From a virus: a stretch of 64,000 bases of DNA. A program made the position numbers and the translations under genes. Shown here in pieces: positions 1,235-64,000 of this stretch. Below the pieces are notes generated by a model. It ran no database searches, was not told the origin of the DNA, and saw only the letters and a program-made list of their open reading frames with translations. The stretch lies in IMG/VR virus record IMGVR_UViG_3300045988_145100, positions 64,001 through 128,000 of that record; one strand, given 5' to 3'. The first letter of the stretch is position 1. Every line of letters begins with the position of its first letter.

Positions 1235-4200
1235 TTAATTACCAGTATCAGGTACTGCTGCTAAGAAGTAATGTTGAGTATTACTTTGAATTACATCAAT
1301 TGTAACATCATGAAAAAGATATGTCCCATCAGCCTGTTTTTCATTAACCTGAATTGTTTTTTGCGTAAAACCAGGTATAAAATAGCTATACCATTCAATA
1401 GCCTTCGTATGCTTTGGACTACTTAATCTTTCTACAGAAAGAGTTCCTGTTGTGATATTGTCTGCATTAATAGTTCCAGCATCAATAACACCTTGACAAT
1501 CTATTTGATTTGCAGTAAGAGTTCCTTTAACATTCGCAGCATTACAATATAGTCTATCAGTATCTATTTCATCAGATGTAATAGTATGTGAAGCAATTTC
1601 ATTTGCAGTAATAGCTCCAGTTCTAATATTTATAGTGTCTACTTTTAAGACACCTTCTTCAATCGTACAACCACCAATAGTTCCACTTGAAGCAGTTATA
1701 TCACCAGATATTGTAGCATTAGTTGAATATAAATGACCATCATATGTAACTCTAAAAGGCGCAGTACTCGAATCTGGACTTCCACCATAAAATGCAGATG
1801 AATTAGTGCCTATACCACACTCATTATCTTCATTTACATTTAAAGCTAACCAACCCGAATCAGAAACATATAGATTACCAACTGTTCCTTCTCCATTTTC
1901 TTTAAATTTAAAATGTTTACCAAGACTAAATCCATCTGAACTTAAATAAAATCCGCCAGATGTTGAATCTAAAGTAGTATGACTACCACTATACATAGAA
2001 GCACTCCTACTATCACAAGATAAACTTTTATCTTCAATACTCCAGCCGCCTATGTGACCTAATGTTGCAGTTAGTTCACCTTCGTTATTAACACTGAATT
2101 TTCGACCTAAAGTGATTGCATCTGTTCCTACATAAACAGAACTACTACTTCCTTTTCTACCGTAACTTAAATAGCTATTATCTGCATCATACTTTAATTC
2201 CCAATGTCTACTACCGCTTCTTAAGCTTCCTAATAATAAAGTATCTTGATTTACTCTAAAACAAGAACCTATACTAATACCATCTGGACCTAAGTAGAAT
2301 CCATCAGTAGTATTGTCAAGAGTAGAGTGACCATGACCATAAATCTTAGTATTTTGAGAATCTAATGTAACATTCCCATCAGAACTTTTTAAAGTTGTAT
2401 TTCCAATTTGCCAACCCGCGATTGAGCCTCCACCTTTTGCAGTTACATGCCCCTCAGGAGTAACTATGAAATTACCAGAACCAAACTCAATTTTAGGTGT
2501 TGTTAAATCAATCTGCATACCTTGATTATTCCTATTTTGAGAAGAATAACCAGTTGGCTTTCCATCTTTACCGAATTCTTTATAAAAATTACCACTGTAT
2601 AACAAGGCTTGTGATGTTAATGGGTCAATAATAATTTGTCCTCTTTTATGAAGACCAAATATTGCAGAACCATCTTCCGCATTTAAGAAAAGTGATTGCG
2701 CGCCGCCACTATATCCAAAAAGACCTACTTGGGTATCTTCTGCGGCAGATGTCTTATTCAAATTTCTAAGTCCCATAACCATACCTGTGAATTTATTATT
2801 ACTATCTTTTTTACCTGCGCCTACTTGCGGAGCTAATAAGAAGCTATCTTCATCACCTGTATATATTTTATTACCATCCCAACCATTAATGTTAGACATA
2901 GCATATCTATTATACAACATAATAATTGGTTTAATATGAATAATTCTATTCATTTCAACACCAATTAATACATCATACGCATTAGCATGAGTTATAGCTG
3001 CCATTTTAGAACTATATAATGATTTTAATTGTTCATTATAATCATTTGTAAGATTTTCTTTAATTTCCATATTCTCTTCTGAATCTGATAATTTTCCATA
3101 ATCTAACAGTGTCTTTTTCATATTTTCAAAAATATCGCTGTATTCAGAATAAGAACTTATCTCTGTGAAATGATTTTGTAATGCGACCAAATTATCATAA
3201 GAATTTTTATATGTTGTTTTAATCTTATCAAAAGTAGAAATCATGCGGGAAACAGGATAGATTCCTCCTGTAATTGCACTAGTAGAATCTCCAGAGCAAA
3301 GATTATAGAGTTTTTCTCTTTTACTTTCATACTTTCTAGCACCGCCTTCTTCTGCGATTAATTGATTCTTATATTGAAGAACTACTTCTACTTTATCATT
3401 ATATATATTTACATAATTTATAAATACATTATAAACAGAAATATCAAGTTTTTCTTTTAACCTAGCAAGCTGTCTATCTGTTAAATCAATTTTTCTAGTT
3501 GAAAAAGAAACTGGCAAAGTTTTACCTAACAATGCATTTGTAACATCTCTATTGATATAGTTATTATAAGTAACAAAATCAATAGTTACAATTCCGCCAA
3601 TTTCAGTATGTTGTTGATAATATTTACTAACATCACTTAAAAGACTTTCACTTTCTCTTAAAGTTCTAATCATATCATTATTAAGAGAAATATAATCTTT
3701 TACTTCTGTTAAAACATTTAACCAAGGTTTATATTGGAAATAGCTTAAAACATTTTTTAAAGTTGAATAATTAGTTGTTAAAGTAGTAATTTGATTTTGA
3801 TAATCTTCTGCTTCTTTATCATATTCTGCTTTTGTTTTAGTTAATCCCTCTTTAGTTTTTGAATCAAGAGTAAGTGTTGTCTTTATATAGTTCTTACTAA
3901 TACCACTATCAAATTTTGAAGTAGGCTCAATTACTTTCTGATTTTCTGGTAAGTCTGCACTTCTATATTCTGAAATGTTTAAGTTTTCTGAAGCCTCCCA
4001 TTCATAATCATAAACATTTGAACTATCTATACTATATAGATTATCTACAACAGTAAAGTTAGAACTATTGTCCCACTTTGGATTTGTACCATCTGAAGCA
4101 AATAAGACTTCTGAATATCCGCCATTAAGCACTGGAACTGCGCATTTCTTATTGCCTTTTTCATCTGTATAAATAACATCTGACTCTTTTGCACAATAAG

Positions 4201-55928: not shown

Positions 55929-56213
55929 ATGTTATATCGTTTAGAAGAATGGCAAGGTGCGAGTGGTGTTTGGTACTGTGAGCATACTAGTAGTTTCCCT
56001 GCTAATGTAGAAAAATGGGTGATTCCCGCACGAGTACTTAATATGTCAGTAGATGATTTTCTAAGAATGTTAATAAAAGATTTTAAACCAGATATTGTAA
56101 CTATTAAGAATGATGGTTCTTTTGTTTCATGGGGTTGGAAATCTTTAACCGCAATGAGAAAATATAAGAACTGGATGAATGCGAAATCAAGAGCAGTAAA
56201 TTTTCAGATATGA
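55929..56213 (+). CDS. Hypothetical protein
   Basis: 94-aa ORF with SD aaggaggtg. Confidence 0.4.
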   Translation: MLYRLEEWQGASGVWYCEHTSSFPANVEKWVIPARVLNMSVDDFLRMLIKDFKPDIVTIKNDGSFVSWGWKSLTAMRKYKNWMNAKSRAVNFQI

Positions 56214-56881
56214 AGAGGTGTTACTTAATGTATAGTGGTATGCGTTTGCATGAATATAATATAATGAGATATATAACAAGTCTTGGTTATACTGTTATAT
56301 CTCGAGAGAAAGTAGATTTAGACAGAAGGAAAGTAATTCTTGCATTAGACCAGAATGATTTTGGTCAAAAGAATGATTGTACTCTTGTTAGTGCAACAGC
56401 TTTAATTAAAGAGGTTGCGCAAATAAGGCATCTTTCTACAGAAGGACTTTACTCAATAATCGAGGAAATTGCGGAAAAGTACTATAATTATGATGGAAAG
56501 TTAAAAGGTACTAATCCTCTTGTGATATCTGCATTATTACAGAGGTCTTTAGAAAAGTTTACGCCAAATACGCAGTATAAAGCTAAAAGTAAATTTTTAA
56601 AAAGTGTTCCAATTATAGGTTTTAATTTTGAAAAGATTAAAAGTTATATCAAGAATATGCAGTATCCAATGATTTTAAATCTTCTTACAGATGGTCGAAA
56701 TTATTATAAAGACCATTCTGTTTTAATAGTAGGCGTAGAGACTTTTAAAGTTAAGAATAATAAAACTGGGAAGAAGAAAGATTTAAAATTTTTAAGAGTT
56801 TATGATAATTGGAATACTTCTGTTTCATATATTAATTATGAACTTTTGGGTGTTTCATCAATTAACTATTTTGATATTTAA
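56210..56881 (+). CDS. Hypothetical protein
   Basis: 223-aa ORF with an ATGA overlap. Confidence 0.45.
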   Translation: MKRCYLMYSGMRLHEYNIMRYITSLGYTVISREKVDLDRRKVILALDQNDFGQKNDCTLVSATALIKEVAQIRHLSTEGLYSIIEEIAEKYYNYDGKLKGTNPLVISALLQRSLEKFTPNTQYKAKSKFLKSVPIIGFNFEKIKSYIKNMQYPMILNLLTDGRNYYKDHSVLIVGVETFKVKNNKTGKKKDLKFLRVYDNWNTSVSYINYELLGVSSINYFDI

Positions 56882-56999
56882 TTGATATTTATAAAAATTT
56901 ATGTTATAATATTTATATAATAAATAAGACACAAACAGCAATTTTTTAGCTTATAAGAAAGCACTACTCTGTTAAAGTAGATAACTGTGTCTTGTGTTT

Positions 57000-57073
57000 G
57001 GTCCTTTAGCTCAGCTGGTTAGAGCGCTCGTCTCATAAGCGAATGGTCCTGGGTTCGAGTCCCAGAAGGTCCA
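57000..57073 (+). tRNA. tRNA with anticodon CAT (Met / fMet / Ile-lysidine class)
   Basis: Hand-folded cloverleaf: acceptor ggtcctt/aaggtcc (one T-T mismatch), D-arm gctc-agctggtta-gagc, anticodon loop ctCATaa, T-arm ctggg-ttcgagt-cccag. Confidence 0.6.
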
Positions 57074-57582
57074 TTTAAGAATTTATCAGTTCTTAATGCG
57101 TGCATACAGTATTAGATATGTTGACTTGCTTATCAAATAGTTATAAGTCGTGAGTTACTGCGTTAAAGATGACAAGTTGTATGATAATAGTTTTCTTAAA
57201 GCTTTTATTAGGGCGGCAACCTGCCGATAACAAATAGCCATTTTTTAAAAATTTTTGGACAAAGTAATTTAAGTATTATAAAATATTTTTTATATAAAAT
57301 ACAAACTTGAAAAATATAAAAAAATATGATATAATATTTATATAAAGAAAAGAGGTAAGTTACTACCCATGCTTCTCCTCTATAAAAAAGAAGGTATGCA
57401 GGGTGAGGTTGACGGAGAGCGACTAAGGCTGCGGTTTACCCAAGAGAATAAAATCTCCTACTAGCGAAATCTAGTTAAAACTACCAAATTACTCATAGTC
57501 GTATAACAGTAATTTGATTTTTATAAAAATTTATGTTATAATATTTATATAAGATAAAGAAAAAAATATTTTTCCTCTCTCA

Positions 57583-57653
57583 TTCAAAGGTAGGATGCAC
57601 GCCTGTTAAGCGTAGAATCTGGGTTCGAATCCCAGGGGAGGAGCTTCCAGTTG
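57583..57653 (+). tRNA. tRNA-Asn (GTT)
   Basis: Acceptor tcctctc/gggagga, anticodon stem (c)acgc/gcgt(a) with loop ctGTTaa, T-arm ctggg-ttcgaat-cccag. Confidence 0.55.
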
Positions 57654-57915
57654 CGGAACTGGTTAAATAAAACCGAGTAGTCAGTTGTCAGTAACCTTGT
57701 TAAAACTGTCAATGTTCATATCCGAAGAGATTTCAGTGTTCGGTAGAGGTTATGAATGAAGAATGTAGTGAGTTCGATTCTTGCTTGTCCGCCGTAGTTG
57801 GACACATGGTGGCATTTGAAGTATTCCTTGTTGGTTGATTAAATGAAACATGTTGCCGCATGTGGATTAAAATACCAAAATACCTTGACTATAATGACGG
57901 CAATCATTATAGAAA

Positions 57916-57989
57916 TGCTTGTTAGTTTAAATTAATTGGAAAAACACTCCGGGAAGGGGAGATGTTGGGTTCGAATCCCACACAAGTGA
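57916..57989 (+). pseudogene. Degenerate tRNA-like element: canonical T-arm but aberrant D and anticodon arms
   Basis: ttggg-ttcgaat-cccac T-arm and a pairable acceptor, but a 13-nt D-loop, a 4-bp anticodon stem and loop gggaagg with purines at positions 32/33. Confidence 0.25.
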
Positions 57990-58264
57990 TTTTGTCAAAG
58001 CAAAGACATTAAAACTCGCTGATTATTAGGTGTGAATAATAGTCGTTGGCTACATGCGTAAGAAAAATAGTTCGAGAGAGCTATCGGAGCCGTAGAGGAG
58101 AAAGATATCGGCATATGGATAACACACTCCTAGATGCGAGAAATCAAATTAAAGGAAGATGGTATATGCAGCTAATAGAGAGAGTAAAGAGCGCTAGCTT
58201 GTAGCGAAACAACCTGCCAAAAGTAAGTTTATTGGTTTATCTTACATTGGTGAAAAACCTTTTA

Positions 58265-58335
58265 ATTTTATAATCTGGTTTAGTTTAATGGTAGAACCCT
58301 GGCTTTGTAACCCAGTAACGAGAGTTCGACTCTCT
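58265..58335 (+). tRNA. tRNA-Thr (TGT)
   Basis: Acceptor tctggtt/aaccaga, D-arm gttt-aatggta-gaac, anticodon stem ctggc/cccag (C31-C39 mismatch) with loop ttTGTaa, T-arm gagag-ttcgact-ctctc. Confidence 0.55.
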
Positions 58336-58373
58336 CAACCAGAATTAGTACTTTAGTACTAGAAAGGAATGTT

Positions 58374-58652
58374 ATGAAAATATGGCTTGATGATTTAAGA
58401 AAAGCACCTTGCGGATATGTGTGGTGTCATTCAGTTAATGAGACTATATTATTTATTGAGAAGAATAAAAGTGATATAGAATTAATTGATTTAGACCATG
58501 ATTTAGGTGATTTCGCTAAAGATGGCGGCGATGCTATTTATTTAATGGATTATTTAATAGAAAAGAAGTTATTCTATAAGCTAAATTTTCATACTGCAAA
58601 TCCAGTAGGCTTAGCAAATATGTTAAGATTGTATGATAGATACTGGGTATAA
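58374..58652 (+). CDS. Small hypothetical protein embedded in the tRNA array
   Basis: 92-aa ORF (MKIWLDDLRKAPCGYVWCH...) with SD aaaggaatgtt, lying between tRNA-Thr and tRNA-Ala. Confidence 0.4.
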   Translation: MKIWLDDLRKAPCGYVWCHSVNETILFIEKNKSDIELIDLDHDLGDFAKDGGDAIYLMDYLIEKKLFYKLNFHTANPVGLANMLRLYDRYWV

Positions 58653-58725
58653 GGGGCTGTAGCTCAGTTGGGAGAGCATTCGTTTTGCAAGCGAAAGGTC
58701 GTGGGTTCGAACCCCACTAGCTCCA
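58653..58725 (+). tRNA. tRNA-Ala (TGC)
   Basis: Acceptor ggggctg/tagctcc (two G-U pairs), D-arm gctc-agttggga-gagc, anticodon stem ttcgt/gcgaa with loop ttTGCaa, T-arm gtggg-ttcgaac-cccac. Confidence 0.6.
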
Positions 58726-58735
58726 TTAATCATAT

Positions 58736-58764
58736 TTGATTTTTATAAAAAAATATGATATAAT
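58736..58764 (+). promoter_or_regulatory. Consensus promoter copy inside the tRNA array
   Basis: ttgatt-N17-TGa-tataat. Confidence 0.6.
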
Positions 58765-58929
58765 ATTTATATAAGATATGAAAAAAGAAAAAATGTGAAA
58801 AAGATTTTGTAGTAGCATTAAAAATGACAATATACTAATCAGAAAATCTTTATGCGGAAACGCTCTGTAATTAGTATTTCAAGTTTAAATTAGATTGTTT
58901 GGCGTTAACAATAAAATAAAACGCCACTT

Positions 58930-59010
58930 GCGGGATTGGTGAAATTGGCAAACACATACGATTTAAGCTCGTACGCTTTAAGCTTGTGAGTTCGAGTCTC
59001 ACATCCCGCA
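58930..59010 (+). tRNA. tRNA-Leu (TAA), type II
   Basis: Acceptor gcgggat/atcccgc, TG-gtg-aaattggcaaa-cac D-arm as in bacterial tRNA-Leu, anticodon stem tacga/tcgta with loop ttTAAgc, 12-nt variable arm, T-arm gtgag-ttcgagt-ctcac. Confidence 0.65.
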
Positions 59011-59135
59011 CTAACCTAAGAAATTAAATTGTGGTATAAAGACATGATAACTAAGTCTTGTAAGAGATTATTTTATCTTTTATAAAAGTTTTCTTCTCTA
59101 CTAGTGAGTAACAAGCTTTTGAAGTTATCTTATAT

Positions 59136-59205
59136 GTATCATTCGTATAATGGTTTGTACGCTGGGTATTCCCTAGAAGAGTGAGTTCGAATCTTACATG
59201 ATACT
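59136..59205 (+). pseudogene. tRNA-like pseudogene with a 5-nt anticodon loop
   Basis: Perfect acceptor gtatcat/atgatac, normal D-arm and T-arm (gtgag-ttcgaat-cttac), but an anticodon arm ctggg-tattc-cctag. Total length 70 nt. Confidence 0.35.
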
Positions 59206-59313
59206 TTTTAGGCACTAACAGCGAATTTGATGATTCTAACAAACAAAAATATTTGTATGTAAAATGCTAAAGGCTTTATATCCTTTAATTAATCAATAGT
59301 GTCTAGTTTTTCT

Positions 59314-59385
59314 TGAGAGATAATATAATGGTTAGTATGCCTCTCTGATACGGAGGTCATCCGAGTTCAACTCTCGGTCTCTCAA
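59314..59385 (+). tRNA. tRNA-Ile (GAT)
   Basis: Acceptor tgagaga/tctctca, anticodon stem cctct/ggagg with loop ctGATac, T-arm ccgag-ttcaact-ctcgg. Confidence 0.6.
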
Positions 59386-59586
59386 TTTAACACTAGTCTG
59401 AATGGCGTGTCGCGGCGATAGGTCAGACGAAGATTATAGGAAAGTCTCCTGGCACATAATGAGATACTGCCTATATCAGACAGAAGCGAACTGTCTTTAA
59501 ATCAAATGATTAACTCTTACAGCAAAATATGTAGACAACACTATTTTTAAATAGTTTTCATAATACATACCCGAGTTTAGAAATAT

Positions 59587-59615
59587 TTGATTTTTATAAA
59601 AAAATATGTTATAAT
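59587..59615 (+). promoter_or_regulatory. Consensus promoter copy inside the tRNA array
   Basis: ttgatt-N17-TGt-tataat. Confidence 0.6.
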
Positions 59616-59765
59616 ATTTATATAAGATATGGGTTTATAAGTGGCTAGTAACTTCCGTCTAACTTACCCAGACATAGAGTTACCTTTTATCAAGAAAGTA
59701 AATCTTGGTCGTGCGACTACGAGAAGTTACTCTTTGCCAACTAGAGTATAATATAAGTTGGATTT

Positions 59766-59839
59766 GGCTTCTTCTTCTAATCGGTTTAGGAATCTAGGTT
59801 CTCATCCTAGGAATGTCAGTTCGAATCTGGCAGAAGTCA
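59766..59839 (+). tRNA. tRNA with anticodon CTC (Glu by the genetic code); identity is tentative
   Basis: Acceptor ggcttct/agaagtc, anticodon stem ctagg/cctag (perfect) with loop ttCTCat, T-arm gtcag-ttcgaat-ctggc. Confidence 0.45.
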
Positions 59840-59903
59840 TTCAGATGCGAAGTTTTGATAAGTTACCTCTTTTCTATATGCTAGGATTTTCTCCTAGCAG
59901 CTT

Positions 59904-59975
59904 GGCTCTTTCGTCTAGCGGTTAGGACAGCGCCCTTTCACGGCGCAGACCCGAGTTCGAATCTCGGAAGAGTCA
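59904..59975 (+). tRNA. tRNA-Glu (TTC)
   Basis: Acceptor ggctctt/aagagtc, D-arm gtct-agcggtta-ggac, anticodon stem gcgcc/ggcgc with loop ctTTCac, T-arm ccgag-ttcgaat-ctcgg. Matches the classic bacterial tRNA-Glu pattern. Confidence 0.65.
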
Positions 59976-60031
59976 TTTAATCAAAAATTTTTAAATTTTT
60001 GATATAAAGGTTTTGGTGGATAATTACCACC

Positions 60032-60066
60032 CTCCTTTACTTAAAGATATACTATAAAGTAAGGAG
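60032..60066 (+). promoter_or_regulatory. RNA hairpin that sequesters the ribosome-binding site of the GIY-YIG endonuclease gene
   Basis: 5' arm c032-t042 (ctcctttactt) pairs with 3' arm a057-g066 (aagtaaggag). The SD aaggag at 60061-60066 lies entirely inside the 3' arm, 6 nt before ATG 60073. Confidence 0.5.
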
Positions 60067-60072
60067 TATTTA

Positions 60073-60699
60073 ATGAGTTATATTTATAAAATTGTTAATT
60101 CTATTAACAATAAAATGTATATTGGTAAAACATCATTTCCAATAGAAAAAAGATTTCAAGAACATATTTCAGCTAGTAAAAAAGAAAGATGTGAAAAGCG
60201 TCCTTTATATGATGCAATGAATAAATATGGAATAGAAAATTTTTTCATAGAACAAATTGAAGAAGTTGAAAATGATGATATTGCTTGTCAAAGAGAACAA
60301 TACTGGATAAAGAAATTAAGAACATATGTAGGCTATGAAGATTGCGTAGGTTATAATGCTACTTTAGGTGGTGACTCAAGAAGATTATATGATTATGAAG
60401 AAATTTCTAAAAAGTATATTGAGTTACAATCAGTTAAAGAAACTTGTAAATTCTTCAATTGCGATAAGTTAGTTGTTAATTTAGCTTGTAAAGAAAATAA
60501 TGTAACAATTCTTGATGGTAGGCAAAGAAAACAAGTTAGGAGATACAATATAGATAAGACTGAATATAAAGATTATCCTTCAATAACAGAAGCTGCTAAA
60601 GATATCCCTAATAAACCAATAGAAACAGCAAGAAAAAATATCTCAAGAGCAATAAATAAAGGTTTAGTTGCTTATGGATATTATTGGAAAAGAATTTAG
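60073..60699 (+). CDS. GIY-YIG homing endonuclease (SegB-like, free-standing, inside the tRNA array)
   Basis: N-terminal YIYKIVNSINNKMYIGKT...R...EH...N GIY-YIG catalytic motifs; C-terminal basic DNA-binding region (AYGYYWKRI, NUMOD-like); 208 aa. Confidence 0.75.
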   Translation: MSYIYKIVNSINNKMYIGKTSFPIEKRFQEHISASKKERCEKRPLYDAMNKYGIENFFIEQIEEVENDDIACQREQYWIKKLRTYVGYEDCVGYNATLGGDSRRLYDYEEISKKYIELQSVKETCKFFNCDKLVVNLACKENNVTILDGRQRKQVRRYNIDKTEYKDYPSITEAAKDIPNKPIETARKNISRAINKGLVAYGYYWKRI

Positions 60700-60702
60700 T
60701 GC

Positions 60703-60776
60703 CGCGGGTTGGAGAAGTCAGAATCTCGTCGGACTCATTATCCGAAGAACGCTGGGGCAGAGCCAGCACCCGCTAC
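60703..60776 (+). pseudogene. Possible degenerate tRNA-like remnant (CAT-type anticodon loop) immediately after the endonuclease gene
   Basis: gcgggt...acccgc acceptor-like helix, anticodon-like arm tcgga-ctCATta-tccga, atypical T-loop ggcagag. Confidence 0.2.
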
Positions 60777-60901
60777 TTGGTTTTTCTGAATTTCTTCCTT
60801 TAAAAATTCAGTTCATATAAATTTCCTTTCTGTTAGCGGATTGGTTGACAATAATGTCAACCTTACCCGCTTGATATAAACAAAAGGAAATAAAAATCTA
60901 T

Positions 60902-60930
60902 TTGATATTATATAAAATTTATGATATAAT
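60902..60930 (+). promoter_or_regulatory. Consensus promoter copy
   Basis: ttgata-N17-TGa-tataat. Confidence 0.6.
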
Positions 60931-60973
60931 ATATATGTAACAAAGAAAAGGAAAAGAAAAGGAGATTTATATT

Positions 60974-61294
60974 ATGGCAGGACAGAATAAGAGAGTATCA
61001 AGAGTATCAAATGGTGGTAGAACAAAGGCTCATAAAGCTCAGGAAGCTAAGCGTCAGGCAAAGTTTGCTGCAAAGCGTGAAGCTGGAAAAGCTTATGTAT
61101 ATAAGGCAAATCCTTACAAGCCTTACACAAAGAAGTGGTGGATTGAAAAGGACAAGAGGGCGGAGAAAGCTAAGTCATCAAGAGTTCCTTATGCAATCGT
61201 AACATCAATCTTTGCTAAGCTTGATAATAAGATTGCTAAAGAGAAAGAAGCTGCAGCTAAGGCAAAAGCTAAGAAGGCTGCGGCAACCGCTTAA
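60974..61294 (+). CDS. Highly basic Lys/Ala-rich protein (histone H1-like / nucleic-acid-binding) inside the tRNA array
   Basis: 106 aa: ...AKRQAKFAAKREAGKAYVYKANPYKPYTKKWW...AKEKEAAAKAKAKKAAATA; SD aaaaggagat. Confidence 0.45.
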   Translation: MAGQNKRVSRVSNGGRTKAHKAQEAKRQAKFAAKREAGKAYVYKANPYKPYTKKWWIEKDKRAEKAKSSRVPYAIVTSIFAKLDNKIAKEKEAAAKAKAKKAAATA

Positions 61295-61306
61295 TAAAAT
61301 AAGCGT

Positions 61307-61380
61307 GCTAGAATAGCTCAAATGGTTAGAGCAGGCGTTTCATAAGCGTCAGGTTGCTAGTTCGATTCTAGCTTCTAGTA
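61307..61380 (+). tRNA. tRNA with anticodon CAT, second copy (Met / fMet / Ile-lysidine class)
   Basis: Acceptor gctagaa/ttctagt (G1-U72), D-arm gctc-aaatggtta-gagc, anticodon stem ggcgt/gcgtc with loop ttCATaa, T-arm gctag-ttcgatt-ctagc. Confidence 0.55.
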
Positions 61381-61385
61381 TTTAT

Positions 61386-61469
61386 AGGGGAGCGCCGAAG
61401 TTGGAGAGTCGGGGCGGTCTGTAAAACCGTTGCCTTCGGGCTGAGTGAGTTCGAATCTCACCTCCCCTA
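61386..61469 (+). tRNA. tRNA-Tyr (GTA), type II
   Basis: Acceptor aggggag/ctcccct, anticodon stem gcggt/accgt with loop ctGTAaa, long variable arm tgccttcgggc, T-arm gtgag-ttcgaat-ctcac. Confidence 0.6.
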
Positions 61470-61908
61470 CTAGGTTGGAGATTACCTAAAAATCTTCTGT
61501 TAAGCTTTTCTTAATTTTTTATATAAGGATTTTATAATACCTAATATAAAAGATTATTGTTTTCCATAAAAGTTAATACTGAAAACAAAGATGTTTTGTA
61601 CAAACACCATATGTAAGTAGAGCTTCCGAGCTGCGATACTTCATTAAAGCCCATACCGCAATATTACTTTTAATAGATAGAAAATAATGCTCAAATGTAT
61701 TTTTTTGGTTTTAAAAGAGTTTATTAATGCGGGCTTTGTAATTAAACATTAGTAAACAAAATATAGTCCATACAGCAAATGTTCAAGAATATCAGATGAT
61801 TTTATTACTTATTAATTCTTACAGCTGTAAATTACACTGATGACTTATTAAATACTAAAACTTAGGACTTAGAAAATAATAGTTTTAATATAATGATAAG
61901 TCATTTTT

Positions 61909-61980
61909 GCTTCTATCGTTCATCGGTTAGGACAATGTCCTGTCACGGCATAGAGGTGGGTCCGACTCCCACTAGAAGCG
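61909..61980 (+). tRNA. tRNA-Asp (GTC)
   Basis: Acceptor gcttcta/tagaagc, D-arm gttc-atcggtta-ggac, anticodon stem atgtc/ggcat with loop ctGTCac, T-arm gtggg-tccgact-cccac (atypical C55). Confidence 0.55.
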
Positions 61981-62435
61981 TTCACCATAGTTTAAGTATA
62001 ATGAGTTTTAATTAGTAAGTACATGACGATGTTACTGAAGATTAATACATAGTTATACATCAAATTAATTCTTGACTATAGCAGGGGTGATTTGTAGAAC
62101 AGTCTGCCAGTAGCAGAAAGATTCAGTAGAAGTCTGAGGGTGACTTTAATGTTTTTGTGCTAAGCACAGTATTCTAATTTTACTAAACAAAATTTTAAGT
62201 ACAAGAATTGGTTTAGTGCTGCAGTATTTATCAGTATTGTAGCTATGCTGTTGATGATACAGCCGAGGTTAAAGAGCGTTAGTGACCAGTGGTGGTGTTA
62301 TGCTTTGTAATGAAGCATGTTAAGCTAATGACACACGGTTAGGTTTGAGATGTAGAGAGCAAGTCTCAGAAGGCAAGACCTATCAGAATAACAAGCATCT
62401 TAGGGTTGCAACCTCATGATAGGAAATAGCTAAAT

Positions 62436-62507
62436 GCAGGTGTAGTACATCGGCTAGTGCGCCAGACTTCCAATCTGGATAGACGGGTTCGATTCCCGTT
62501 ACCTGCT
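62436..62507 (+). tRNA. tRNA-Gly (TCC)
   Basis: Acceptor gcaggtg/tacctgc, anticodon stem ccaga/tctgg with loop ctTCCaa, T-arm acggg-ttcgatt-cccgt. Confidence 0.6.
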
Positions 62508-62622
62508 TTATCGTAGGGGTTTGGAATCCCCTAAATGAGGCAACCGCCGCGATAATACAAAATTCTTGCAAGAAACAAAATATTATACAATAGAATTCTT
62601 ATTGGTTGTAGGTTCTATTGTT

Positions 62623-62696
62623 TGTGGTGTAGCTCAATCAGGTAGAGCGTTAGCGGCTGGAGCTAAAGGTTAGAGGTTCAAATCCTTTCACCACAA
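62623..62696 (+). tRNA. tRNA-like gene with a non-canonical anticodon loop ggCTGga (G at position 33); possibly Gln-CTG, or a pseudo-tRNA
   Basis: Perfect acceptor tgtggtg/caccaca, D-arm gctc-aatcaggta-gagc, perfect 5-bp anticodon stem ttagc/gctaa, T-arm agagg-ttcaaat-ccttt. Confidence 0.35.
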
Positions 62697-62809
62697 TTCT
62701 GTAGTCGGCATTGGTAAACATAGGAAACTAGATGTCGATGGTTATGAATAAGGATAAAAGTTGCAACAAAACTTGTTCAGATTATGCGGAATTGCAACAC
62801 CGCATTTTC

Positions 62810-62883
62810 GGGGAATTAGCTCATATGTGGCAGAGCACTCGGTTGAAGCCCGAGGCGGAGAGGCTCGATACCTCTACTCCCCA
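62810..62883 (+). tRNA. tRNA-Phe (GAA)
   Basis: Acceptor ggggaat/actcccc (one A-C mismatch), D-arm gctc-atatgtggca-gagc, perfect anticodon stem ctcgg/ccgag with loop ttGAAgc, T-arm agagg-ctcgata-cctct (atypical T-loop). Confidence 0.5.
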
Positions 62884-63029
62884 TTTTATTAAAGGCTTAA
62901 ACAGCAATTCAGTGTAAGTACTGGTTGAGAAAAACAAATATTAAAATATTAAAGTTATTAAATAACGAGCCTAGCATAATAGATTATTTCTTAATTTTAA
63001 TATAAAGTAGCTTTATAGTTACTCTTATT

Positions 63030-63103
63030 GCGCCTATAGCTCAGTTGGCTAGAGCATCAAACTTTTAATTTGAGGGTCCCGAGTTCGAGTCTCGGTGGGC
63101 GTA
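63030..63103 (+). tRNA. tRNA-Lys (TTT)
   Basis: Acceptor gcgccta/tgggcgt, D-arm gctc-agttggcta-gagc, anticodon stem tcaaa/tttga with loop ctTTTaa, T-arm ccgag-ttcgagt-ctcgg. Confidence 0.6.
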
Positions 63104-63408
63104 TTAAAATATTAGTGCCTTAACTGAGAGTCAGGATTCAAAGGTTAAATGAGGTAATCAGTCCATAAATCAGCTAATACTTTTAATGTAAGATAAAAGA
63201 AGAAAAAGGGTTTAGGACTTCTTTTGTAACGATACACAAACCAGCAACCCTGAGCTTTATATTAGCAACAGTCCACGAAGTAATTTTCTAGGAGTGCTGT
63301 TTAGGTGGTTATCTCTTACAAAAATAAACAGTAGAAAGGAGATAAATATGAGAAAGGATATTCATACAGCTTTTCACCTATAAGTTCTTTTTAAAGGAGG
63401 AATTATAA

Positions 63409-63684
63409 GTGAGTAGAAGTTATAAAAAACATAATTGGTATTGTGACCACAAAGGAAAAGAGAAAAAAAGAACTGCTAATTCAGTAGTCCGTATGTGGTT
63501 AAAAGACCATCCAGATGAAGTTATCAAAAGGAGTAGTTATAAAAAAATTTATGAAAAGTATGATATTTGTGACTGCAAAATTTTTGCTTCTTGGGAAGCT
63601 TATTATTTAAGCTGTTTAAGATGGGGCGATACTGATTATAAGAGAATTTATCGAACATGGCTTCAGGTTTATAGAAATAAATAA
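63409..63684 (+). CDS. Small basic hypothetical protein (GTG start) inside the tRNA array
   Basis: SD aaaggagg 8 nt upstream of GTG 63409; 91 aa rich in Lys, Arg, Tyr and Cys. Confidence 0.4.
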   Translation: MSRSYKKHNWYCDHKGKEKKRTANSVVRMWLKDHPDEVIKRSSYKKIYEKYDICDCKIFASWEAYYLSCLRWGDTDYKRIYRTWLQVYRNK

Positions 63685-63686
63685 TT

Positions 63687-63771
63687 GCGGGTATGGCGTA
63701 AAGGTATCGCAGAGCATTGCTAATGCTTCCACCTCATGCGGGGTGTCTAAGTTCGAATCTTAGTGCCCGCG
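63687..63771 (+). tRNA. tRNA-Ser (GCT), type II
   Basis: Acceptor gcgggta/tgcccgc, TG-gcg...cgc D-arm, anticodon stem gagca/tgctt with loop ttGCTaa, long variable arm, T-arm ctaag-ttcgaat-cttag. Confidence 0.6.
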
Positions 63772-63774
63772 TTT

Positions 63775-63846
63775 GCGGGAATACGCTAATGGATAGACGA
63801 AGTGGCTACGAACCACTCAGTTGGAGTTCGAGTCTCCATTTCCGCA
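63775..63846 (+). tRNA. tRNA-Arg (ACG)
   Basis: Acceptor gcgggaa/tttccgc (one G-U), perfect anticodon stem agtgg/ccact with loop ctACGaa, T-arm tggag-ttcgagt-ctcca. Confidence 0.6.
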
Positions 63847-63852
63847 CTTATT

Positions 63853-63938
63853 GCCGCGTTGGCTCAACTGGTACAGCACGGGTCTTGAAAACCCGCATCT
63901 TCGTAAGGGGTATCTGAGTTCGAATCTCAGGCGCGGCG
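63853..63938 (+). tRNA. tRNA-Ser (TGA), type II
   Basis: Acceptor gccgcgt/gcgcggc, anticodon stem cgggt/acccg with loop ctTGAaa, long variable arm, T-arm ctgag-ttcgaat-ctcag. Confidence 0.6.
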
Positions 63939-64000
63939 CTGTAGATGATGACGACATCTACACGGCAGGATTCGTCACCTGCCGTGGATACACGCCTGTC

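Follow-up and report, generated by a model that had tools for sequence, protein, structure and literature searches.

Free-standing GIY-YIG endonucleases are already known from phage tRNA clusters, SegB of phage T4 being an example, and a survey published in 2026 found SegB homologues to be significantly associated with tRNA genes (PMC13096335). The 27-bp recognition site of T4 SegB has the T-arm motif GGTTCRANTCC as its conserved core, and cleavage takes place close to the 3' end of the tRNA gene (PMC2330249). The same T-loop motif was recovered for SegB cleavage by SITE-seq, and the rearrangements that depend on SegB use microhomology between tRNA and segB ends (PMC13096335). At the level of expression, sequestration of the ribosome-binding site (RBS) has been documented for I-TevI, I-TevII, I-TevIII and mobE, and predicted for segB (PMC2988022), where the hairpin that would sequester the Shine-Dalgarno (SD) sequence is predicted at ~20 kcal/mol (PMC2330249). 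Here we analyze a GIY-YIG homing endonuclease gene in a viral tRNA array, together with its leader and the tRNA-Met-like element that follows it. The DNA analyzed, which we call the window, is a stretch of 64,000 nucleotides (positions 64,001 to 128,000 of the IMG/VR record IMGVR_UViG_3300045988_145100).

An initial annotation of the window had proposed, from the sequence, that the open reading frame (ORF) in question encodes a GIY-YIG homing endonuclease. The Pfam model PF01541 (E 3.4e-10, 40.5 bits against a cut-off of 22.6), the NCBIfam model TIGR01453 (74.6 bits against a cut-off of 56.05) and the alignment to and fold of I-TevI all agree with this proposal, and the ORF also matches PHROG homing-endonuclease families. 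Residues 2-88 align to the I-TevI catalytic domain in a sequence search (1mk0/1ln0, E 5e-8), and Foldseek superposes an AF2 model (predicted local distance difference test score 89) on 1mk0 with a template-modelling (TM) score of 0.85 and a root-mean-square deviation of 1.9 A. The Arg, Glu and Asn residues that the annotation had pointed out are indeed conserved; however, the first catalytic motif is YIY instead of GIY. Across an alignment of 42 homologues with 55-97% identity, Y5, Y16, R27, H31, E75 and N95 are invariant, and the full catalytic set of this fold (the tyrosines of the GIY and YIG motifs, Arg27, Glu75 and Asn90 in I-TevI numbering) is present and aligns to I-TevI. The C-terminal half is predicted to be helical with small beta hairpins. 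Its NUMOD1 score falls below threshold (17-18.5 bits versus 22.8), PF07453 is present in some homologues, and the predicted fold weakly resembles the DNA-binding part of I-HmuI (1u3e, Foldseek probability 0.84). The family is large, with 3216 proteins at E<=1e-10. Judged by its sequence, the ORF is an I-TevI/SegB-type GIY-YIG homing endonuclease gene that stands free within the tRNA array.

The location was said to mirror that of T4 segB, and the two layouts do match: T4 has tRNA-Ile, 41 nt, segB, 5 nt and tRNA-Arg, while the window has tRNA-Glu, 96 nt, the ORF, 3 nt and the tRNA-like element. In both cases, a protein with a GIY-YIG domain is encoded between two tRNA genes on the tRNA strand, with its stop codon a few nucleotides before the next tRNA. 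The two also share a predicted SD-sequestering hairpin, presence/absence polymorphism among relatives, and tRNA genes as likely targets. However, BLASTP aligns only residues 3-102 of the window protein to SegB, with 33% identity, and detects no similarity in the C-terminal part, so the full-length similarity, including the DNA-binding half, that would mark a SegB orthologue is absent. The window also differs in that its lineage is that of a Bacillota-type gut phage, its hairpin is far weaker, and its neighboring tRNA is a reshaped, non-canonical cloverleaf of a kind not described for segB. For residues 2-88, no other protein matches as well in structure and sequence as I-TevI, which has the same bipartite build of catalytic domain, linker and small DNA-binding domain and whose translation is regulated through RBS sequestration (PMC2988022). 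Unlike I-TevI, the window ORF is not intron-encoded and lacks the four-cysteine zinc finger (only C130 and C139 are conserved), and no late promoter or operator could be shown for it.

We also recorded the flanking tRNAs at 134 loci that contain a homologue. Approximately 100 of the 134 are located in tRNA arrays and share the strand of the tRNAs; the upstream tRNA typically ends 20-90 nt before the ORF, and the next tRNA often begins 0-25 nt past the stop codon. This placement agrees with the association of SegB and tRNA genes reported previously (PMC13096335). Because so many of these loci lie in tRNA arrays, the family does not present the pattern that would speak against the assignment, namely ORFs at unrelated loci without a tRNA context.

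The slot was also compared among close relatives of the window. We used a neighboring gene encoding 106 amino acids as an anchor for finding relatives, and further close relatives came from a large protein collection. An IMG/VR search with the endonuclease protein gave homologues at 55% identity or lower only, and an INPHARED search with 2.2 kb of DNA gave only tRNA matches and ~70% matches to the 5' half of the ORF; the phage itself is absent from INPHARED. Two IMG/VR phages, L042 and L043, have 89-98% DNA identity to the window across the array. In L042, the slot between tRNA-Glu and tRNA-Met is empty: there is a 35-nt spacer, then an intact tRNA-Met(CAU) gene whose C1xA72 mismatch makes it initiator-like. 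In L043, the slot (2790-3518) holds an ORF of 242 amino acids with the HNH motif DHINGINNDDRLENLRWVCPNCN (Pfam HNH 21.2 bits, cut-off 21.4), which ~200 nt of other sequence separate from an intact tRNA-Met gene. In the window and 21 other contigs, the slot holds the GIY-YIG cassette. The borders of the insertion are sharp, in that homology of the window to both phages ends at 59981 and resumes at 60689 (L043) or 60773 (L042). A single site that is empty or filled by two nuclease families in sibling genomes is a classic signature of free-standing homing endonuclease genes. In the tRNA region of phage T5, and for other free-standing endonuclease genes, different nuclease families likewise compete for one intergenic slot in sibling genomes, and we liken the GIY-YIG gene of the window and the HNH-like ORF of L043 to this situation. 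These alleles, together with the fusions described below, strongly support the earlier suggestion that the endonuclease inserted next to or into a tRNA-Met-like target. As a separate observation, L042 contains, at 3585-3800, tRNA-like ends (GGTTGTA ... GTCGGGTTCAAATCCCGACTACAAC) around ~150 nt of extra sequence; this region replaces the tRNA-like element of the window and is followed by the shared flank.

The cassette occurs in several sequence contexts. Its 21 other carriers come from ~20 samples, and their ORFs are 97-100% identical to that of the window. Most have the window arrangement. Among these, L164-L166 have a tRNA-Glu allele of the L042/L043 type right up to the junction, which marks a mosaic boundary. 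In L174, L177 and L178, which come from three samples, tRNA-Glu is followed by an L042-like spacer, then by a tRNA-Met 5' half of the L042 type and then by the cassette; here the 5' half ends in GAGAGTCAT and directly adjoins TTAATCAAAAA and the cassette (junction GAGAGTCAT|TTAATC). Contig L045 matches the window at 97-100% identity over 59977-60776 and has different flanks on either side; it has the same junction, but in a different tRNA-Met gene, whose 5' half ends in CTAGACTCAT and is followed by TTAATC. The cassette is thus fused to a tRNA-Met 5' half at the anticodon loop in four contigs, and is found in at least three different flank contexts. We conclude that it is very probably a mobile, free-standing GIY-YIG cassette.

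The junctions also bear on how the cassette moved. The 13-mer AGAGTCATTTAAT occurs twice in L174, L177 and L178, in the tRNA-Glu trailer and at the junction, and its copies flank the spacer and tRNA-Met 5' half (73 nt in total) that are not in the window. Removing one repeat and the intervening 73 nt from the L174 type gives exactly the window sequence. Two histories fit the data. The first takes the window type as the donor and L174 and L045 as products of repair: a broken tRNA-Met gene would have been resected to the anticodon loop, and then annealed by microhomology to the donor's tRNA-Glu trailer. According to the second, which could equally apply, recombination between the 13-nt repeats deleted the intervening DNA of an L174-type genome and so gave rise to the window. 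The palindrome carried by the cassette after TTTAAT speaks for the first history, as it parallels a trailer palindrome in L042, which has a different palindrome at the position of ATCAAAAATTTTTAAATTTTTGAT. Under both histories, the 3' half of the resident tRNA-Met gene was destroyed and the cassette stands in its place. Our own reading of the half-tRNA fusions, as judged from the sequences, is that they are probable footprints of break repair.

What follows the ORF is equally distinctive. The initial annotation had noted a tRNA-like remnant with a CAT-type loop on the 3' side of the gene. The element is real, but it is not a decayed fragment, as it has a full cloverleaf with compensatory stems. 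Its minimum free energy (MFE) structure is a perfect cloverleaf with four stems, a 7-nt anticodon loop and a CAU anticodon (-27.0 kcal/mol). The D-loop, AGTCAGAA, has no GG (G18-G19 are lost), and the T-loop, GGCAGAG, has no TTCRA (T54-Psi55-C56 are lost), while GTTCRA is present in 17 of the 19 tRNAs of the array. ARAGORN makes no call on the plus strand at 60703-60775 even with a relaxed threshold of 60%, and the Rfam tRNA model (RF00005) has no match there at E<=10. Over 3.3 kb, the window and L043 differ at 62 positions, 22 of which fall among the 60 bases of 60709-60768. Divergence is therefore 37% in this patch versus 1.2% elsewhere, with sharp borders. When the 20 base pairs are examined in the window, L042 and L043, all 60 of the 60 cells are standard pairs; seven pairs show compensatory changes and none is broken. 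No shuffled or slid control approaches the pairing score of this three-sequence alignment. The T-arm reads GGGGCAGAGCC in the window versus GGGTTCAAGTCCC in the endonuclease-free allele, and the window copy has GGGGCAGAGCC in place of GGGTTCAAGTCC. All 21 other contigs with the ORF have an identical copy of the element, i.e., the two are linked at 22 of 22 loci, while L042 and L043 have canonical genes.

Some indication of the allele's origin comes from L141, an IMG/VR phage tRNA-fMet gene that shares its acceptor stem, D-stem and variable loop with the element but has canonical loops. A scan of IMG/VR with the pattern CGCGGGT..ACTCAT..ACCCGC retrieved canonical phage tRNA-fMet genes, including L141, and no GGCAGAG variant. 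Together with the local divergence and the compensated stems, this suggests that the allele came from elsewhere and lost its elbow afterwards, and that it is not a randomly decaying copy.

More distant phages give a further view of the locus. Homologues with 62-69% identity (L048, L049-L053, L054 and L055/L056) occupy the tRNA-Glu(CUC)-tRNA-Glu(UUC)-tRNA-Met locus, either before or after the tRNA-Met. The adjacent tRNA-Met-like copy has a full cloverleaf and the T-loop GTCAGCA in L054, and in L049-L053 and L055/L056 it has a canonical T-loop and a 5' acceptor strand that is unable to pair. Rfam detects none of the L049-L056 copies at E<=0.1. We looked upstream of the L049 and L055 ORFs for a 5' acceptor strand, as expected of a split gene, and found none. 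The exception is L048, where a canonical tRNA-Met is adjacent to a paralogue with 69% identity. This endonuclease subfamily thus goes together with damaged tRNA-Met copies, though not in every case. The tRNA-Glu(UUC) genes of L048 (2577-2716) and L055 (~1838-1965) contain a conserved insertion of 70-90 nt in the anticodon loop, which starts with GTTAWTTTAGTTTAA, ends with AAGTGCAAGACT..TAGC and is well below the size of a group I intron; the L048 gene is still recognised by Rfam as a tRNA (48.7 bits).

The family membership and catalytic residues of the protein, the polymorphism of its slot, the mobility of the block and its linkage to a locally hyper-divergent but structurally intact tRNA-like allele are all observed here. 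In our judgement, they are likely to be best explained if 59982-60775 is a free-standing GIY-YIG cassette, consisting of a two-hairpin leader, the ORF and a linked tRNA-Met-like element, that sits in the Glu(UUC)-Met spacer and has a homing and immunity mechanism. In a mixed infection, the enzyme would cut genomes that lack the endonuclease, within the 3' half of their tRNA-Met gene or beside it, as T4 SegB does by way of the T-arm motif GGTTCRANTCC, and recombinational repair would then copy the cassette into the broken genome. The carrier would be protected because its own copy has lost the T-arm motif (GGGGCAGAGCC), yet keeps every stem. Transcription of the gene probably occurs by read-through from a strong promoter of the array (59587-59615), and translation may be damped since the SD sequence is paired in hairpin 2 of the leader.

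Our confidence in the parts of this explanation varies. By analogy with SegB, we lean towards the neighboring tRNA-Met gene as the cleavage target. The proposal that the T-arm change is the determinant of immunity rests on the same analogy, and we offer it more tentatively. Still more doubtful is the idea that the cassette carries its own immunity allele, i.e., that the endonuclease and a reshaped RNA gene form one mobile unit, in which the tRNA-Met gene has been rewritten with its stems kept (the seven compensatory pairs), its T-/D-loop elbow erased and its SegB-type T-arm motif removed. If this idea is true, the RNA of the rewritten tRNA-Met gene could still act as an RNase P/Z processing signal or as a working tRNA, and hairpin 1 of the leader, with its T-arm geometry and RNA-level covariation, might represent another such relic, now put to use in regulating the gene.

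It is important to consider the leader separately, as here the earlier interpretation fared less well. Both hairpins that it described are present, including the SD sequence in the 3' arm of the second, but both are weak (Table 1). Their joint fold is only modestly better than that of shuffled sequences (z -1.78, 12/200). The predicted probability that the SD sequence is unpaired is 0.06, which is the fifth lowest among the 48 SD-bearing ORFs of the window, where the median is 0.70. For the second pair of hairpin 1, the window has G-C, L179 has G·U and L171/L172 have A-U, and this series gives the hairpin RNA-level support; we read it directly from the sequences and folds, as the MAFFT alignment had a 1-nt indel inside the 3' arm. 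Hairpin 2 has one change that preserves pairing, C to U with a G·U pair kept (L175/L176), and is otherwise invariant in 20 contigs. In an alignment with L054, L048 and L055, where a tRNA or tRNA-like element lies before the ORF, hairpin 1 falls at the position of the T-arm of that element. Given this alignment and its T-arm-like geometry, it may be a relic T-arm, which we note only as a lead. We considered hairpin 1 as an I-TevI-style operator that resembles the tRNA-Met T-arm, and rejected this because the sequence similarity is too weak; the resemblance is only positional and geometric. Homologues with ~40% identity in IMG/VR phages of 140-190 kb (L004, L009-L013, L015, L021, L022 and L025) share a different leader element ~40-80 nt upstream of the ORF: a hairpin loop with AACCTCCACGTGGT (an anti-SD-like CCUCC plus the palindrome CCACGTGG), followed by GGGTAAYGCTAAT. 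This element is not present in the window.

Regarding transcription, the only promoter-like site inside the hairpins is a sigma-70-like match of 9/12 positions (TTACCA-18-TATACT, 60024-60053), which is at chance density. The extended -10-like TGATATAAA at 60000-60008 would start transcripts at ~60015 and include both hairpins; we infer from the sequence that the region of the palindrome and TGATATAAA may have a promoter role. The initial annotation had proposed that translation is silenced on long transcripts as in T4. The pairing of the SD sequence upholds this proposal, whereas the weak stem, the paralogues without a hairpin and the lack of a demonstrated late-type promoter do not. The analogy to T4 is nonetheless fair because RBS sequestration is documented for the four genes named above and predicted for segB. 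By that analogy, it is plausible that hairpin 2 damps translation when transcripts read through from the array promoter (59587-59615), but it is not a demonstrated early/late switch. Apart from this weak evidence for hairpin-based regulation, the interpretation given in the initial annotation is supported.

Several points weigh against the homing and immunity explanation. With respect to the leader, the SD hairpin was not found in the leaders of the paralogues with 62-69% identity, its -7.1 kcal/mol is weak compared with the ~20 kcal/mol predicted for segB (PMC2330249), and four other ORFs in the window score lower in SD accessibility. The choice of tRNA-Met over tRNA-Glu as target, and the role assigned to the T-loop, are carried over from SegB, which is 33% identical over the catalytic domain only. 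A canonical tRNA-Met is adjacent to the 69% paralogue in L048, and many homologues with 40% identity abut canonical tRNAs, so these genes do not generally need a neighbor that has lost its T-loop. Lastly, the half-tRNA junctions could equally be the primary state of insertion, from which the window would have been derived by repeat-mediated deletion.

Alternative explanations for the tRNA-like element must also be considered. It might be kept for a function of its RNA, either as an RNase P/Z signal that trims the endonuclease mRNA from the tRNA precursor, or as a working initiator tRNA with an atypical elbow. The retention of four stems through seven compensatory pairs, and a cloverleaf that is also the MFE structure, are expected on this account. 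The element also begins 3 nt past the stop codon, comparable to 5 nt for T4 segB and 0-25 nt for many homologues, and is the only complete tRNA-Met copy in L174-type genomes. However, both G18-G19 and T54-Psi55-C56 are lost and tRNA models miss the element, and the compensatory changes may predate the changes in the loops, as functional relatives like L141 exist. We consider an RNA function rather unlikely, although it is compatible with immunity.

Alternatively, the endonuclease might be an inactive or domesticated passenger, with the tRNA-like element a decaying pseudogene, or a foreign allele acquired by unrelated recombination, that has no tie to cleavage immunity. About half of the nucleotide changes among close variants are non-synonymous (e.g., 6 amino acid changes from 12 nucleotide changes in L045), and the D-stem and variable region shared with the L141 tRNA-fMet make a foreign origin plausible. 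However, the catalytic residues are invariant in the 42 homologues with 55-97% identity, and at least 18 contigs hold full-length, intact ORFs. The patch of divergence has sharp borders and only compensatory changes in its stems, which is not a pattern of decay, and linkage to the ORF is complete even though the cassette is in at least three flank contexts. The passenger explanation is thus improbable.

Another explanation, drawn by analogy with T6 SegB, is that the endonuclease, besides spreading selfishly, benefits the phage: breaks in the array would drive duplication or shuffling of tRNAs against host defences that target tRNAs. Besides the T6 precedent (PMC13096335), the locus is rich in partial tRNA-Met copies and mosaic tRNA-Glu alleles (L164-L166, L174), and neighboring slots are polymorphic (the PDDEXK_5 ORF described below). 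However, tandem amplification is found in none of the contigs and the support is by analogy, so we regard such a benefit as quite unlikely here. Finally, the ORF might be encoded by a group I intron in the tRNA-Met anticodon loop, as in cyanobacterial tRNA-fMet, given that the L174 and L045 junctions come directly after the CAU anticodon and that TIGR01453 is named 'group I intron endonuclease', but we rejected this reading as hardly credible: only 96 nt precede the ORF and a complete cloverleaf follows it, no 3' exon exists that could complement the 5' half, which is itself entirely missing from the window, and the Rfam models of group I and group II introns have no match in the window or in eight related loci.

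Table 1. Features in and around the slot between tRNA-Glu and tRNA-Met in the window
Feature	Position	Strand	Remarks
tRNA-Glu(UUC), resident, left border of slot	59903..59976	+	ARAGORN; Rfam tRNA 62.8 bits
AGAGTCATTTAAT, tRNA-Glu 3' end and trailer; microhomology/direct repeat with tRNA-Met anticodon loop (GAGAGTCATT)	59969..59981	+	
Perfect palindrome ATCAAAAATTTTTAAATTTTTGAT after tRNA-Glu, overlapping extended -10-like TGATATAAA (60000-60008)	59980..60003	+	folds at -6.3 kcal/mol
Hairpin 1, GGTGG-ATAATTA-CCACC (5-bp stem, 7-nt loop)	60015..60031	+	-6.0 kcal/mol
Hairpin 2, CUCCUU(U)ACUU paired with AAGUAAGGAG; SD AAGGAG (60061-60066) in 3' arm	60032..60066	+	-7.1 kcal/mol, 10-bp stem
GIY-YIG homing endonuclease gene	60073..60699	+	208 aa, ATG start; catalytic domain in residues 1-100, C-terminal half of helix-turn-helix-type, putatively DNA-binding
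Non-canonical tRNA-Met(CAU)-like cloverleaf	60703..60775	+	at position of the L042/L043 initiator-like tRNA-Met
Strongly structured spacer, resident, right flank, outside cassette	60779..60898	+	MFE -34.6 kcal/mol, z -6.2, 0/200 shuffles as stable

The structured spacer in the right flank lies between the tRNA-like element and a promoter at 60902, and is 97-98% identical in L042 and L043. Both of its hairpins differ in sequence in L045 yet still pair, and it matches no Rfam family.

The locus is part of a tRNA array that occupies the last 7 kb of the window, with 19 genes predicted by ARAGORN at 56999-63939, all on the plus strand; Rfam confirms 18 of them. Strong sigma-70-type promoters (TTGAyw-17-TGnTATAAT) punctuate the array at 56882, 57307, 57514, 58736, 59587 and 60902. 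Near-identical modules of ~50 nt with the promoter TTGATT-17-TGTTATAAT recur along the array in the window, L042 and L043 (e.g., window 57511-57563 and 59581-59629). The fold of 59622-59764, from a promoter to tRNA-Glu(CUC), is no more stable than shuffles (z -0.14). Elsewhere the window encodes a portal protein, a large terminase and structural proteins of very large size. Portals of ~140-kb Enterococcus phages are 33% identical to that of the window, and a 145-kb contig from a human-gut metagenome carries the identical sequence; the source is therefore an uncultured gut phage of ~145 kb whose host is probably a member of the Bacillota.

Other elements of the array were also observed. At 59136-59205, ARAGORN predicts a tRNA-Asn with the unusual anticodon ATT, which the Rfam tRNA model does not report at E<=1; it is present in L043, and L042 has tRNA-Gly(TCC) at that position. 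It may be a second non-canonical or replaced tRNA of the array. An ORF of 92 amino acids within the array (58374-58652) matches the cREC_REC cyclic-phosphate-processing receiver domain (PF20274, E 2.7e-21) and is kept in relatives. The 106-aa anchor gene directly downstream of the locus (60974-61294) encodes a basic protein rich in Lys and Ala, is 98-99% conserved in L042 and L043, and has no Pfam or PHROG family. Shortly after this gene, some otherwise near-identical contigs have a PD-(D/E)XK-type ORF of 138-154 amino acids (PF11645) that is not in the window, where the equivalent position is after 61381. It is located at 1803-2267 in L166, 1799-2263 in L167, 3864-4280 in L174, where it comes after the next tRNA-Met, and 3675-4091 in L175. 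Its site is another polymorphic nuclease slot of the same array. In L048, a ROOL RNA (RF03087, 258 bits) is found at 1928-2562, in the tRNA array just upstream of the Glu/Met/endonuclease locus; Rfam did not detect this RNA in 56000-64000 of the window.

Given the SegB precedent and the 2026 survey, the gene alone adds little to what is known. The value of the locus is that it offers a natural series of alleles in uncultured gut phages: an empty site, an HNH-like rival, the cassette beside its presumed target and the cassette fused into that target, as well as a tRNA gene whose sequence has been rewritten while its stems were kept. The series predicts both a target of cleavage, the 3' half of an initiator-like tRNA-Met gene, and a determinant of resistance, the T-arm. 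It also suggests that homing endonucleases may be a source of the non-canonical "tRNA-like" genes in phage arrays that escape tRNA finders.

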